Below, piece after piece: positions 29,974-61,236 of a stretch of DNA of 64,000 nt (the stretch's first letter is position 1; each line of letters begins with the position of its first letter). Where the stretch lies: assembly GCA_963706915.1 (NCBI GenBank), contig CAVPOH010000009.1, positions 126,765 through 190,764 of the forward strand, given 5' to 3'. The notes beneath the pieces are model-generated. The model had not been told where the DNA came from. It worked only from the letters and a program-made list of their open reading frames with translations, and made no database searches. Position numbers and translations under genes: made by a program. This stretch comes from an uncultured Actinomycetes bacterium (GTDB lineage Bacteria > Actinomycetota > Thermoleophilia > Gaiellales > Gaiellaceae).

Positions 29974-30009
29974 GGTTTCGACCCTATCGGCGGTGGGTAC
30001 TTAACACAG

Positions 30010-30140
30010 TCCTCACAGGAATCCTGCGAGGATGTAGCTGGATGGCCGCGCCTCCCCCCGGCGCGGACGTGCAGCGACGGCACCGGCCCACCGCCGCAGG
30101 GCTCGCCGTCGACGGAAGGGAGCCTCCGGGCTCCCTTTCC
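30010..30140 (+). ncRNA. Candidate 6C-like small RNA
   Basis: CCGCGCC-TCCCCCC-GGCGCGG stem with a six-C loop, a second stem with a C-rich loop, and a terminal hairpin GGAAGGGAGCC-TCCG-GGCTCCCTTTCC. Confidence 0.4.
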
Positions 30141-30151
30141 GTGAGGAAGGC

Positions 30152-39282: not shown

Positions 39283-40386
39283 CTAGGCGGCGGTCTCCGG
39301 TGCCACGGCTTCCGACGGCGCCGCTTCGGCCGCGGCGCGAATCTGGGCGATCCGTGCTCGGTGCGCCTTGGTCACCTCGAGGACGACGATCTGGAGCGAC
39401 GCGGTGACCGGGACGGCGACGAGCGCGCCGAGCACGCCCAGGAGCGCGCCGAACAGCGTGACGCCGAGGATGACGAAGAACGGGGAGATGTTGACGGCCT
39501 TGCCGTAGATGGTCGGCCCGAGCAGGTTGTTCTCGACCTGCTGGTAGACGAGGATCACGACGAGCATGATCACGGCGGCCGTGATGCCCTCCTCCGCCCA
39601 GAGGGTCGGGACGAGGATGAAGCCCGCGATCGTCGCCCCGATATTGGGGATCAGATCGAGGAAGCCCGCGATCAGGCCGAGCGCGAGCGCGTAGCTGGAG
39701 CCGAGGAGGAACGCGGCGAGGCCCTGCGTCGTGCCGGCGATCAGGGCGATCGTGATCGCGCCGATCGCCCAGCGAGAGATGGTCTCCGTGACGTTCTCCC
39801 AGACCTCGAGCCAACGCTCGGACTCGGTCGGCACGAGCATCGAGCGCAGCGCTCCCTTGAGGCGCGGCATGTCCACGAGGAGGAAGAGCGCGAGGAAGAT
39901 CAGCGTGAAGGCAGTCAGCCCGGCCGAGAACGCGTTGCCCGCGACGCCAAGGATCGCGCTGATCGCGTCTGGGATCGTCGACGAGAGGTCGTTCGCGCCC
40001 TGCTGGACGTTCTCGGCGGCACCCGAGTCGCCGAGCCACGACAGCTCGTCCGAGTCGCGGAGCTCGTCGACGAGGTCCGGCAGCTGGTGGAGGAAGTCCC
40101 GTAGGGAGCCGACGAGCGGGACGAGCAGGATCAGCGCGAGCACCACGACGGCGACCGTCGTGCCGAGGACGACGATCGTCGCGGAGAGCCCGCGCCCGAG
40201 GCCGGTGCAGCGCATGAACCACCGCACGGGGATCTCGAACACGAGCGCGAGGAAGATGCCGATGAAGACGATGACGAGCGCGTCGATGATCGAGACGACC
40301 GCGGCCGCGAGCCCGACGATGAGCGCCGCGATCAGGAGCGTCCGGACGGTGATCGCCGTCTCGAAGAGTCTGCGCTTCACCGGCAC
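39283..40386 (-). CDS. AI-2E family transporter
   Basis: LIPNIG, YQQVENNLLGP, GVLGALVAVP. Confidence 0.9.
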   Translation of the reverse strand: MPVKRRLFETAITVRTLLIAALIVGLAAAVVSIIDALVIVFIGIFLALVFEIPVRWFMRCTGLGRGLSATIVVLGTTVAVVVLALILLVPLVGSLRDFLHQLPDLVDELRDSDELSWLGDSGAAENVQQGANDLSSTIPDAISAILGVAGNAFSAGLTAFTLIFLALFLLVDMPRLKGALRSMLVPTESERWLEVWENVTETISRWAIGAITIALIAGTTQGLAAFLLGSSYALALGLIAGFLDLIPNIGATIAGFILVPTLWAEEGITAAVIMLVVILVYQQVENNLLGPTIYGKAVNISPFFVILGVTLFGALLGVLGALVAVPVTASLQIVVLEVTKAHRARIAQIRAAAEAAPSEAVAPETAA

Positions 40387-40500
40387 CGCGCGAGCATAGA
40401 ACGTCGATCAGCCGGACACGTCGCGGACAGGGGTTGCGCCGGTTCAGCGTCGGCGTGGCGGCCGCGTTCGCGCTGGTCGCCGGGTCCGCCCCGTTTGCAG

Positions 40501-40600
40501 CCCCAACCTCCCCCAGGGGCACCCCCGGTGCCCTGATGTCACGTTATCGCGAGTTCTCCGACGGCTCCGTGCCGACTTCGTATCGAGACACGCGCAGACG
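40501..40600 (-). repeat. Dispersed promoter/sRNA-like element, copy A
   Basis: 40501-40550 matches 45849-45898 at 44 of 50 nt; 11-bp-phased repeats, TAACGT and a hairpin. Confidence 0.8.
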
Positions 40601-44811: not shown

Positions 44812-45750
44812 TCAGACGTTGAAGCGGACGTTCAGGACGTCGCCGTCCTGGACGACGTACGTCTTGCCCTCGAGCCGCTGGGTGCCGCGCCGGGCCGCCT
44901 CGGCGTGGGATCCGGCAGCGACGAGGTCGTCGGCGGCGATCACCTCGCACCGGATGAACCCGCGCGCGATGTCCGTGTGGATCGTTCCCGCCGCGTCGAG
45001 CGCCGTCTGGCCGGCGCGAAGGGTCCAGGCACGGGTCTCCTTCTCTCCCGCCGTGAAGAACGTGATCAGGCCGAGGGACTCCGAGAGCCGCCGCACGACC
45101 TCGTCGAGTGCGGACGGCCCGTCGCGGAACTCGGCCGCCTCGTCCTCGGGGAGCTCCGCGAGCTCCGCCTCCAGCCTGCCGTCGATGCCTTTCGGGCCGT
45201 TCTCCACCGCGAGGAGCGGCTTGGAGGTCAGCGGCTCGAGCACGGGCGGCAGCTCGCCGCTCCAGTCCGCCAGCGTGAGCCCTTGATCGAGGTGGTCAAG
45301 GAGGGAGGCGAGCACCTCGAGCTCCGCGCGCTTGGTCGGATCGCCGGACTTCGCCTCCTTCGCGACGCGCTCGTGGCGGCGCTCGACGTGGTCGCGGTCG
45401 GCGACGAGCAACTCGAGCTTCAGCGTCTCGAGATCGTCTGCCGGCGTCGCGTCGGGCGAGAAGCCGTCCAGCACCGCGAGGATGGCGTCGACCTGGCGGA
45501 GGTTGCCGAGGAGCTGCGGGCCTGTACCCGGCACGTCGACGACGCGGACCGCGGCCGGCGTGACCTTCTTCGCGCCGACAACTGCGGCGAGTCGGTCGAG
45601 CCGGTCGTCGGCGATCGTGGCCATCCCGACGTTCGGCTTGTCGGTCACGGAGGCGTACGCGGTGATCTCGGCGCCGGCGCGCGTGAGGGCGTTGAACAGG
45701 GTGGTCTTGCCGCTGTTCGGCAGGCCAACGATCCCGACCTCGAGCGCCAT
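44812..45750 (-). CDS. ychF: Obg-family ATPase YchF, shortened form
   Basis: GIVGLPNSGKTTLFNALT, TFFTAG, AGTIHTDIARGFIRCE, RLEGKTYVVQDGD. Confidence 0.9.
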   Translation of the reverse strand: MALEVGIVGLPNSGKTTLFNALTRAGAEITAYASVTDKPNVGMATIADDRLDRLAAVVGAKKVTPAAVRVVDVPGTGPQLLGNLRQVDAILAVLDGFSPDATPADDLETLKLELLVADRDHVERRHERVAKEAKSGDPTKRAELEVLASLLDHLDQGLTLADWSGELPPVLEPLTSKPLLAVENGPKGIDGRLEAELAELPEDEAAEFRDGPSALDEVVRRLSESLGLITFFTAGEKETRAWTLRAGQTALDAAGTIHTDIARGFIRCEVIAADDLVAAGSHAEAARRGTQRLEGKTYVVQDGDVLNVRFNV

Positions 45751-45848
45751 CGCGTCAGGGTAGTGCAGGGCGCCCGACGGCTGGTCGGGGTGCGCGTGCT
45801 CCGGGTGACGGCGGGTTCGCGCGGTCGGCGAGGCGGTTGCGCGCACCA

Positions 45849-45932
45849 CCCCAACCTCCCCCAGGGGCACTCCCGTGTCCCTGAAGTCACGGTATCGCTC
45901 ATCTCGTGACGTCGGGGTGCCGGCTTCGTGCC
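45849..45932 (-). repeat. Dispersed promoter/sRNA-like element, copy B
   Basis: Near-identical to copy A; GGCACGAAGCC-GGCACCCCGAC-GTCACGAGATG, then 5 nt, then TACCGT. Confidence 0.8.
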
Positions 45933-46759
45933 TGTTCAGCGCGGTCGGTGCGGTTCGCCGGACGCGACGCCTCGTCCTGGCTCCGGACCTCCGTCACGAC
46001 ATATGCGGCATGTTTCCGCACCTGCCGCGTCAGGTCGTCCCAGCGCTCCTCCGTCTCGCCGAGGTAGATCGACCGCGCGCGCTCGAGCACAGGCCGATGC
46101 TCGACGGGGACTCGCGCAAGTGCCCACGTCGCGGCCTCGTCCTTCGAGCGAATCTCCCCGGTCGTGACGGTGCACCAGATCCGTGCCAGGGTCAGCAGGA
46201 CGTTACGCGTATCGCCCTCGATGTCCCTCACGAGCTCGTCGATGCCGCCGACCATTGCGGCGGCGAGGTCGTCGTGCGGGACAGGGTCGAGCAGCTCGGC
46301 CGGGGCCGGACCGACGAGTGGGCTGTCCCCGAACAGCACCATCGCAAGCAGAACGGCCACGTCAGCGTGCGCATTCTCCGACCAGGGCTCGAGGTTCCCG
46401 CGCTCGAAGTCGTCGCGGAGCCACTCGCCGTACTGGAAGTCGAGCCTCGTCGGGGTGCGCCAGGGCCGTACCTCGGACGCGACCACGATCGTCAGCTCGA
46501 CCGGTCGCGCGGGGAGGGGCGCCCTGCGTCCCGAGACGGCGCGCAGCCGGTCGACCAGGCGACGCCTCTCGTCGGGCGTCGTCCGCCTGGCGGACACAGC
46601 GAGGACATCGAGGTCGCTGTACGGGCGGAGGCCGCCGAGCACCGCGGAGCCGTGCAGGTACACGCCGAGCAGGTCGTCTCCGAGGATCTCCGCGACCGCG
46701 GCGGCGACGCGTGCCGCCTGCTCCTGCTCGGCCGCGGGAAGCCCGCCCGCCACCCCCAC
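45899..46759 (-). CDS. Aminoglycoside adenylyltransferase-like protein (AadA/ANT(9) family, DUF4111 C-domain)
   Basis: VYLHGSAVLGGLRPYSDLDVL, PVELTIV, DFQYGEWLR, GDTRNVLLTLARIW, SKDEAA. Confidence 0.88.
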   Translation of the reverse strand: MGVAGGLPAAEQEQAARVAAAVAEILGDDLLGVYLHGSAVLGGLRPYSDLDVLAVSARRTTPDERRRLVDRLRAVSGRRAPLPARPVELTIVVASEVRPWRTPTRLDFQYGEWLRDDFERGNLEPWSENAHADVAVLLAMVLFGDSPLVGPAPAELLDPVPHDDLAAAMVGGIDELVRDIEGDTRNVLLTLARIWCTVTTGEIRSKDEAATWALARVPVEHRPVLERARSIYLGETEERWDDLTRQVRKHAAYVVTEVRSQDEASRPANRTDRAEQARSRHPDVTR

Positions 46760-61035: not shown

Positions 61036-61136
61036 GTATGCGCGCCGGACACGGAGTCGGCACGAAGCCGGCACCCTCCCGTCCGTGGTCGGCGGGTACG
61101 GTGACTCCAGGGGGCCTCGCACCCCCCTTGGGGGGC
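61036..61136 (+). repeat. Dispersed promoter/sRNA-like element, copy C (more diverged)
   Basis: GACACGGAGTC-GGCACGAAGCC-GGCACCCTCCC-GTCCGTGGTCG, 5 nt, then TACGGT-GACTCCAGGG..CCCCTTGGGGGG. Confidence 0.65.
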
Positions 61137-61236
61137 GCGGACCGGGATCGCGCGAGCGGGGATCGTCCACCTGATTGGGGTCCACGGCGAGCGACCCGTC
61201 GGCCGACCCGACCGATCCGCCCAATGCCTCCGCCTG

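Follow-up and report, generated by a model that had tools for sequence, protein, structure and literature searches.

The window analysed here is a stretch of 64,000 nucleotides from an uncultured member of the Gaiellaceae (contig C9:126765-190764 of a 4.30-Mb, 70.9% G+C, 21-contig assembly; referred to as the source genome, G000). It holds three copies (A, B and C) of a non-coding module, and the genes behind them include an AI-2E transporter gene (A), ychF (B) and a hydrolase gene. Each copy consists of phased direct repeats and a -10 hexamer, followed by a hairpin and a G-rich tail. The module is probably a cassette in which an activator-type promoter, shared with recA and com genes, is joined to a hairpin-capped, G-rich RNA start, giving co-regulated non-coding transcripts. 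This reading builds on the observed anatomy and conservation of the cassette, on compensatory changes in its stem, on the promoter code common to recA and com genes and on lineage-specific gains. The features of the three copies, with the promoters of the genes behind A and B, are:

40591-40596, minus strand: position of the first box of copy A, degenerate
40558-40585, minus strand: boxes CGATAC (40580-40585), CGGCAC (40569-40574) and CGTCGG (40558-40563) of copy A, in the register of the 21-copy profile
40541-40548, minus strand: G-14 (40548) and -10 hexamer TAACGT (40541-40546) of copy A
40534, minus strand: predicted transcription start of copy A (the A in CAGGG), 7 nt past the -10 and equivalent to the start of leaderless genes that have this promoter
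40517-40533, minus strand: 5'-terminal hairpin of copy A, GGGCACC-GGG-GGUGCCC
40501-40516, minus strand: conserved G-rich tail of copy A, CUGGGGGAGGUUGGGG
40384-40398, minus strand: AI-2E transporter gene, own leaderless promoter TATGCT (40393-40398) and start codon GTG (40384-40386), +137 from the module start
45906-45933, minus strand: boxes AGGCAC (45928-45933), CGGCAC (45917-45922) and CGTCAC (45906-45911) of copy B
45889-45896, minus strand: G-14 and -10 hexamer TACCGT (45889-45894) of copy B, with the predicted start at 45882
45865-45881, minus strand: hairpin of copy B, GGG(A)CAC-GGGA-GUGCCC
45849-45864, minus strand: G-rich tail of copy B, CUGGGGGAGGUUGGGG
45748-45762, minus strand: ychF gene, own leaderless promoter TACCCT (45757-45762) and start codon ATG (45748-45750)
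61047-61085, plus strand: boxes GGACAC (61047-61052), CGGCAC (61058-61063), CGGCAC (61069-61074) and CGTCCG (61080-61085) of copy C
61095-61102, plus strand: G-14 and -10 hexamer TACGGT (61097-61102) of copy C, with the predicted start at 61109
61110-61126, plus strand: variant hairpin of copy C, GGGGG-CCUCGCA-CCCCC
61127-61141, plus strand: variant G-rich tail of copy C, CUUGGGGGGCGCGG

All three copies were re-read at the positions and with the sequence given in a preliminary description of the window, and the window has three occurrences of TANNGTGACNNCAGGG, for which 100 shuffles gave an expectation of 0.00. The family is larger than the three copies counted there. A regular-expression search followed by nhmmer yielded 24 full module copies in the source genome, and the upstream half alone was matched at about 20 places. 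In an all-against-all comparison of flanks, three locus pairs (L005/L016, L009/L015 and L022/L024) were 90-96% identical; such pairs reflect segmental duplication or strain variation within the assembly, and unique loci were therefore counted as 21.

For the promoter half, the 21 unique copies were aligned without gaps, anchored on the A of CAGGG. The profile has a conserved core of about 98 bp with a sharp onset at -63 and an end near +35. Four boxes with the consensus C-G-(G/T)-C-A-C lie at -62/-57, -51/-46, -40/-35 and -29/-24, centred at about -59, -48, -37 and -26, and form direct repeats on one helix face. The G in the second box position (-61, -50, -39 and -28) is present in 19-21 of the 21 copies, and the 11-bp phasing first seen in three copies is thus exact over the whole set. 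A distance of 15 nt (A) or 26 nt (B and C) between core box and hexamer had been read as a shift by one helical turn. This was wrong, as all copies have a single register; the difference arose because the first box of copy A is degenerate and CGATAC is its second box. G-14, T-12, A-11 and T-7 are invariant, with TAnnnT as the -10 hexamer (-12 to -7) and box 4 (-29 to -24) in place of a -35 element. No TTGACA-like hexamer was found at -35, and scans of copies A and B for the sigma-70 consensus gave no -35/-10 match; the -10 region is an extended -10 without -35. GGCAC pairs at 11-bp spacing occur 47 times in the source genome, and the count at nearby spacings (multiples of three excluded) is about 15. 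The possibility that the boxes are a general promoter feature of the genome was rejected, since 153 generic leaderless promoters had neither boxes nor G-14.

Among the matches to the upstream half are eight protein genes with this box array and -10. The start codon lies at offset 61 of the promoter model, equivalent to the A (+1) of the module, in six of them and at 62-63 in the other two. Because these genes are leaderless, their start codon marks the transcription start, which argues for a module start at the A of CAGGG. Transcription from this A under an activator of the head-to-tail-repeat type can be predicted with fair confidence. That the module has a shared promoter of activator type had been proposed from the window; it is supported by phased boxes and a -10 conserved in 24 copies and three genera, and by an array that drives leaderless genes starting at +1.

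Three of the box-promoter genes code for ComEA, ComM and a ComFC-like protein and a fourth for RNase HII (rnhB) (Pfam). Genome searches placed comEC directly after comEA and dprA directly after comM, while recA directly follows a frameshifted open reading frame (ORF; L176) that bears the box promoter and that, read by eye, we take to be LigT/ThpR-like. The leaderless box-promoter operons are comEA-comEC, comM-dprA, comFC, rnhB and ligT-like-recA, none with the RNA half; mfd and fpg join the set via module copies in front of them. Of 22 genera in the family, most show the box promoter in front of comM; for the recA operon it was seen in three genera. The box array marks out a distinct regulon with some 45 promoters, whose core functions are DNA uptake, recombination and repair, and the module, having the array in common with the com and recA promoters, falls into this regulon. 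LexA is also encoded, and lexA is preceded by a classical CGAAC-N4-GTTCG box. With LexA present and its box distinct, the box regulon is a second system, like PafBC in mycobacteria.

Further observations were made on individual genes. The lexA upstream region (L300:1440-1500, G000 C2) carries an SOS box and an AGGAGG Shine-Dalgarno (SD) sequence; the source genome has LexA control and SD-led translation beside many leaderless genes. A 68-aa all-helical protein is encoded leaderless behind a box promoter in two genera (L175:1727-1933(-), G000 C6:62643, and L254), and gave no Pfam match; it is a further, uncharacterised member of the box regulon. L176 (the ORF before recA), L019 (hutH), L014 (alaS) and L020 show an apparent frameshift or a start in mid-domain, which suggests assembly indel errors that limit start-codon calls.

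The predicted RNA begins with a 5'-terminal hairpin from +2, followed by CUGGGGGNNGUUGG (CUGGGGG-NN-GUUGG). In 64 aligned matches, 29 distinct 5' segments with at least 9 different stems were found, nearly all of which fold as a hairpin from +1 or +2. The stems are GGGCACC/GGUGCCC, GGG(A)CAC/GUGCCC, GGGAUC/GAUCCC, GGGAAC/GUUCCC, GGGGGAC/GUCCCCC, GGGGCG/CGCCCC, GGGGGC/GCCCCC, GGGAGC/GCUCCC and GGGGC/GCCCC, with bulges and loops of 3-9 nt among the variants. Hairpin variants were folded one by one; pair counting on MAFFT alignments was dropped because misaligned bulged variants understate pairing. That pairing is kept while the stem sequence changes speaks for a structure of RNA (or single-stranded DNA) and against a protein operator. 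Read as DNA, the palindrome from +2 to +18 would be the operator of a dimeric repressor and the phased boxes unrelated upstream elements. GGGCACC-N3-GGTGCCC does form a perfect inverted repeat over the start site, in the classic operator position, but what persists through all the stems, bulges and loop lengths is the pairing and not the half-site sequence, and the LexA box of this genome is different. The operator explanation is therefore hardly credible.

The tail is kept in sequence except for its two middle bases, which are free (AG, UG, UC, CA, CG, CC) even between orthologs; an SD function is therefore unlikely. At gathering score, Rfam had no matches in the window, and a tRNA/tmRNA scan of the window was also empty, so a tRNA or tmRNA origin was rejected. 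For five module loci searched at E<=1, the sole match was a SAM riboswitch beside L009, and the cmscan search suggested beforehand thus assigned the module to no curated family. A hairpin at the extreme 5' end is a known means of stabilising bacterial RNAs. The module hairpin may have this role, with the invariant G-tract as a putative binding site. A candidate small RNA (sRNA) that carries a UCCCCCC loop and has a terminator was noted at window positions 30005-30145 (plus strand). It had no Rfam match above threshold, and 6C (RF01066) stayed below cut-off throughout the genome. Pairing of the G-tract with this C-rich loop was rejected as evidence, the duplex energies being no better than those of shuffles.

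Of the 21 unique copies, 17 are oriented toward the next gene, which lies 70-260 nt downstream, and the other four face convergent genes, with no co-oriented gene there. Genes behind copies outside the window are mfd, fpg, alaS, psuG and hutH, genes for an aldehyde dehydrogenase, a class-V aminotransferase, a radical-SAM protein, an ABC ATPase and a DUF4015 protein, and a sulfite reductase gene behind a SAM riboswitch. Ten of the 21 downstream genes have retained a leaderless promoter of their own (TAnnnT-N6/7-ATG/GTG), +67 to +183 from the module start. The separate -10 elements described earlier for the AI-2E gene and ychF were found in place (TATGCT before GTG and TACCCT before ATG, listed above). 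The former is conserved in relatives without the module, the latter in eight aligned genomes of the genus, with or without it. Two copies (L009 and L015) end at about +57 in a GC hairpin and U run, with the G-tract as the 5' arm of the terminator. SAM riboswitch RF00162 (59.7 bits; L009:2493-2614(-), G000 C16, with a near-duplicate at L015) lies directly after the terminated copy and precedes a sulfite/nitrite reductase gene; it appears to have a -10-like element of its own. At orthologous loci the core is conserved, and the spacer to the gene varies freely in sequence and length. A small ORF after the G-tract was considered and rejected, no frame or sequence being conserved in the spacer.

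Given the genes' own promoters and the two terminators, the module transcript is less likely to be the normal leader of these genes than a short RNA of its own or an alternative 5' extension. An earlier suggestion that a separate short RNA may be driven from the module agrees with this. As a regular 5' leader, the module would provide a damage- or competence-inducible second promoter, an mRNA-stabilising hairpin and an SD-like tract for loading ribosomes. The orientation and distance of the 17 copies would suit this, mfd and fpg are plausible damage-inducible targets, and GGGGGAGG resembles the AGGAGG before lexA of the source genome. However, the two bases that complete the SD vary freely, also between orthologs, and the start codons are 50-160 nt away from the tract. 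These start codons have no SD of their own and stand 6-7 nt after a -10, a leaderless design; moreover, two copies terminate before the gene and four have no co-oriented gene. A regular leader is thus judged unlikely. A small ligand-sensing or attenuating cis-regulatory RNA (riboswitch or leader-peptide attenuator) would likewise place a conserved, structured 5' RNA segment before genes, and could use the G-tract as the 5' arm of a terminator hairpin, as seen in two copies. Here, only about 33 nt are conserved, with no conserved expression platform or ORF in the spacer, the genes, which have no function in common, possess promoters of their own, and no Rfam family matched even at the loose threshold, which makes this explanation very improbable. 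As a separate observation, the palindromic stretch ACGATGAyCCCGCGGGGCGyGATCCCCGCCGAA lies about 20-60 nt upstream of mfd (L004/L025/L036). It is conserved in three species and is located downstream of, and separate from, the module.

For distribution analysis, a covariance model of the whole module was used, as had been recommended. The family proved widespread: all 18 genomes searched from the genus of the source genome (Gaiella) carry it, with 5-39 matches each, as do two further genera of the Gaiellaceae, and four other families in the order gave essentially no match. When 185,579 species genomes were scanned with a pattern, the matches came almost only from Gaiella, Gaiellaceae and Thermoleophilia metagenome-assembled genomes. 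In other species, the high-scoring copies mostly occupy loci whose orthologs in the source genome also carry a copy (e.g., mfd, alaS, psuG, the ABC gene and aldehyde dehydrogenase), with flanking proteins 60-90% identical. The window copies have a narrower range. Copy B is present at three of 30 ychF loci, those of the three closest relatives. At an empty ychF site with the same gene order, the upstream stop codon lies about 30 nt from the ychF -10, and the source genome has about 215 nt more. Copy A occupies two of the 24 loci of the AI-2E gene and has a junction like that of copy B; relatives with the gene order of the A and B loci have about 200-215 bp fewer. Copy C precedes an accessory gene seen in the source genome and one relative only. 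Judged by these comparisons, copies A, B and C are recent lineage-specific gains. The unit appears to be copied now and then and to be maintained afterwards.

Such gains, together with a copy number of 5-39 across congeneric genomes and a hairpin within the unit, as in repetitive extragenic palindromes (REPs), would also be expected of a selfish or neutral mobile repeat (REP, miniature inverted-repeat transposable element (MITE) or IS200-derived) with incidental promoter-like features. Ends typical of known MITE or REP families, which the preliminary description had named as counter-evidence, are absent: there are no terminal inverted repeats, and the two ends of the unit, at -63 and about +35, are unrelated. 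No target duplication was recognisable at filled versus empty sites of ychF and the AI-2E gene, where the junctions are blurred by divergence. The 84-nt 3' part of the copy B insert was searched by BLAST for a donor in 41 genomes of the genus, where all matches were short and at chance level, and the comparison of flanks showed nothing shared beyond the three near-duplicate pairs. Copies are single and not arranged as GTAG-flanked inverted pairs as in REPs, many are at orthologous loci and conserved while their flanks decay, and the box array is common to single-copy com and recA promoters conserved across the family. A mobile repeat is thus considered improbable. At the copy B locus it was also seen that a nucleotidyltransferase-like ORF upstream of ychF runs into the module (window positions 45895-45990, minus strand). 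In a relative without the module this ORF stops about 60 nt earlier, at TAG; the insertion thus gave the protein a new C-terminal tail.

To our knowledge, the box sequence is unlike any other described. In layout, the module has what marks activator sites of OmpR/PhoB or SARP type: direct repeats spaced by about 11 bp, with the proximal repeat about 8-12 bp upstream of the -10. It thereby resembles the pho boxes of OmpR/PhoB-type regulators and the heptamer repeats of SARP/AfsR (PMC10936776), in which head-to-tail repeats one helical turn apart lie over or replace the -35 element and the proximal one is about 10 bp from the -10. The module differs from both in having four repeats that reach to -62.

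The closest functional analogues are probably the streptococcal cia-dependent small RNA (csRNA) genes. There, the regulator of the CiaRH system drives several homologous sRNAs in one genome as part of a competence-linked regulon, from promoters in which TTTAAG-N5-TTTAAG (11-bp direct repeats) about 10 bp upstream of the -10 replaces the -35; streptococci have 2-6 csRNA genes per genome, each followed by a terminator (PMC3091779). Common to both are the 11-bp direct repeats near the -10, the multiple sibling units and the link to competence. In contrast to the csRNA genes, the module has 21-39 copies, mostly without a terminator, and four repeats instead of two. Its predicted RNA is G-rich and resembles an SD rather than an SD complement, and there is no sequence similarity.

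As regards the activator, the PafBC-dependent (RecA-NDp) promoters of mycobacteria come closest among described systems; they have the motif tGTCgg(N10)tA(N3)T with a -26 element and no -35, and are used by 'sigma adaptation' (PMC8635444, PMC6789036). Similarities to the module are a canonical -10 without -35, a GTC element at about -26, the control of recA and repair genes, and a separate LexA system. Boxes precede ligT-like-recA and rnhB, and the module precedes mfd and fpg, in a genome that encodes WYL proteins (an adjacent pair at C5:270542 and 271593 and a third at C8:47109). Box 4 reads C-G-T-C-A at -29 to -25, with T-27 in 16 of 21 copies. Unlike the PafBC model, the module has three more upstream repeats at 11-bp phase; the fourth box of the recA promoter is weak and without GTC, and the regulon is dominated by DNA-uptake genes and non-coding RNAs. 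With its GTC out of register, its three extra phased repeats and the recA box 4 without GTC, the module was not filed as a PafBC promoter. Putative mobile promoters, which are highly similar promoter regions upstream of non-homologous genes within a genome (PMC3575422), share with the module the reuse before non-homologous genes and the lineage-specific gains. The module differs from them by including a structured RNA start and by sitting before genes that keep their own promoter; it would thus add a transcript and leave the regulation of the gene in place.

Three other RNA-like families were noted in the genome. A second family behind the box promoter (G000 C10:8683(-), C7:273755(-) and C10:17187(-); loci L181-L183) starts with CCCCGCGGGUGGGUGGGGGUUnGGGAyGGGACCA, is very G-rich and resembles a G-quadruplex motif. 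The third reads GUGGGUGGUGGGAUGGGGUGCCCC... and lies behind TTGTCAGTC-N7-TAGAAT with phased boxes further upstream (G000 C1:36922(-), C5:621001(+) and C1:411857(+); L184-L186; also L253 in another genus); to judge by its sequence, its promoter looks like the canonical RecA-NDp/PafBC motif. The fourth lies behind the box promoter, with a TAGGCT -10 followed by GGGGAGGAGGUCGGUGGCCCGG (G000 C5:63355(-), C5:625831(-) and C4:216955(+); L187-L189). The nine loci of these families gave no Rfam match at a loose E-value. In addition, GTC(A/G)(G/C)(G/T)-N9-TAnnnT was found 27 times in the whole genome (G000) against about 15 at other spacings, several times before leaderless starts; these sites may be a separate promoter set with canonical PafBC spacing.

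The proposed mechanism has a DNA half and an RNA half. The DNA half (-63 to -7) would be an activator-dependent promoter, bound by a protein that recognises the head-to-tail repeats; a winged-helix activator of OmpR/PhoB, SARP or PafBC type is the candidate, and comparison with known systems leaves a PafBC-like or another identity of the activator a tentative assignment. The module would be switched on together with the DNA-uptake, recombination and repair regulon. In the RNA half (+1 to about +35), transcription would start at the A of CAGGG and give an immediate 5'-terminal hairpin and then the single-stranded CUGGGGGNNGUUGG. The hairpin would protect the 5' end, and the G-tract would bind a protein or a C-rich RNA. 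Together, the copies would yield co-regulated non-coding RNAs as a family of 'siblings', some stopping at a terminator and others running toward a gene with a leaderless promoter to give an alternative 5'-extended transcript. Occasionally new copies would arise by a copying process and then be kept by selection.

Several observations speak against this reading. No partner of the G-tract was found, and pairing with the candidate at 30005-30145 is at shuffle level. A csRNA-like gene would have a terminator within about 250 nt of its promoter; a recognisable intrinsic one is present in only two of 21 copies and absent at A and B, as judged by scans that target the U-tailed type, which terminators without a U-tail may escape. 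The co-orientation of 17 of the 21 copies with the next gene is also compatible with a leader function. Given their mixed functions (ychF, alaS, psuG, hutH, aldehyde dehydrogenase, transporters), the downstream genes show no obvious repair or competence logic. In comparison with the PafBC motif, the GTC of box 4 is one base further from the -10 (13 versus 12 nt between GTC and TA).

A bolder version, to which a minor chance is given, is that the module is a propagating 'regulon-recruiting' unit, with up to about 20-40 hairpin-capped G-rich transcripts, made when the DNA-uptake/recombination regulon fires, acting as an unusually large set of sibling sRNAs or decoys, or with repression of leaderless genes by a promoter switch. 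In the latter case, the module RNA would override the leaderless promoter and give a 5'-extended mRNA untranslatable in leaderless mode. If true, this would be the bacterial equivalent of long undecoded transcript isoforms, and housekeeping genes would become linked to competence or DNA damage.

The presence of the module before such genes raises the question of what effect an upstream inducible promoter has on a gene built for leaderless translation. The Gaiellaceae are abundant soil actinobacteria, almost uncultured, with no described regulons or small RNAs. The analysis gives this family a concrete regulon with a defined promoter code, with recA and a full DNA-uptake set as its core and with non-coding RNAs as its largest class. 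The copying of a promoter-plus-RNA unit to new genes in recent lineages would be a case of regulon growth by cassette reuse, not point mutation.
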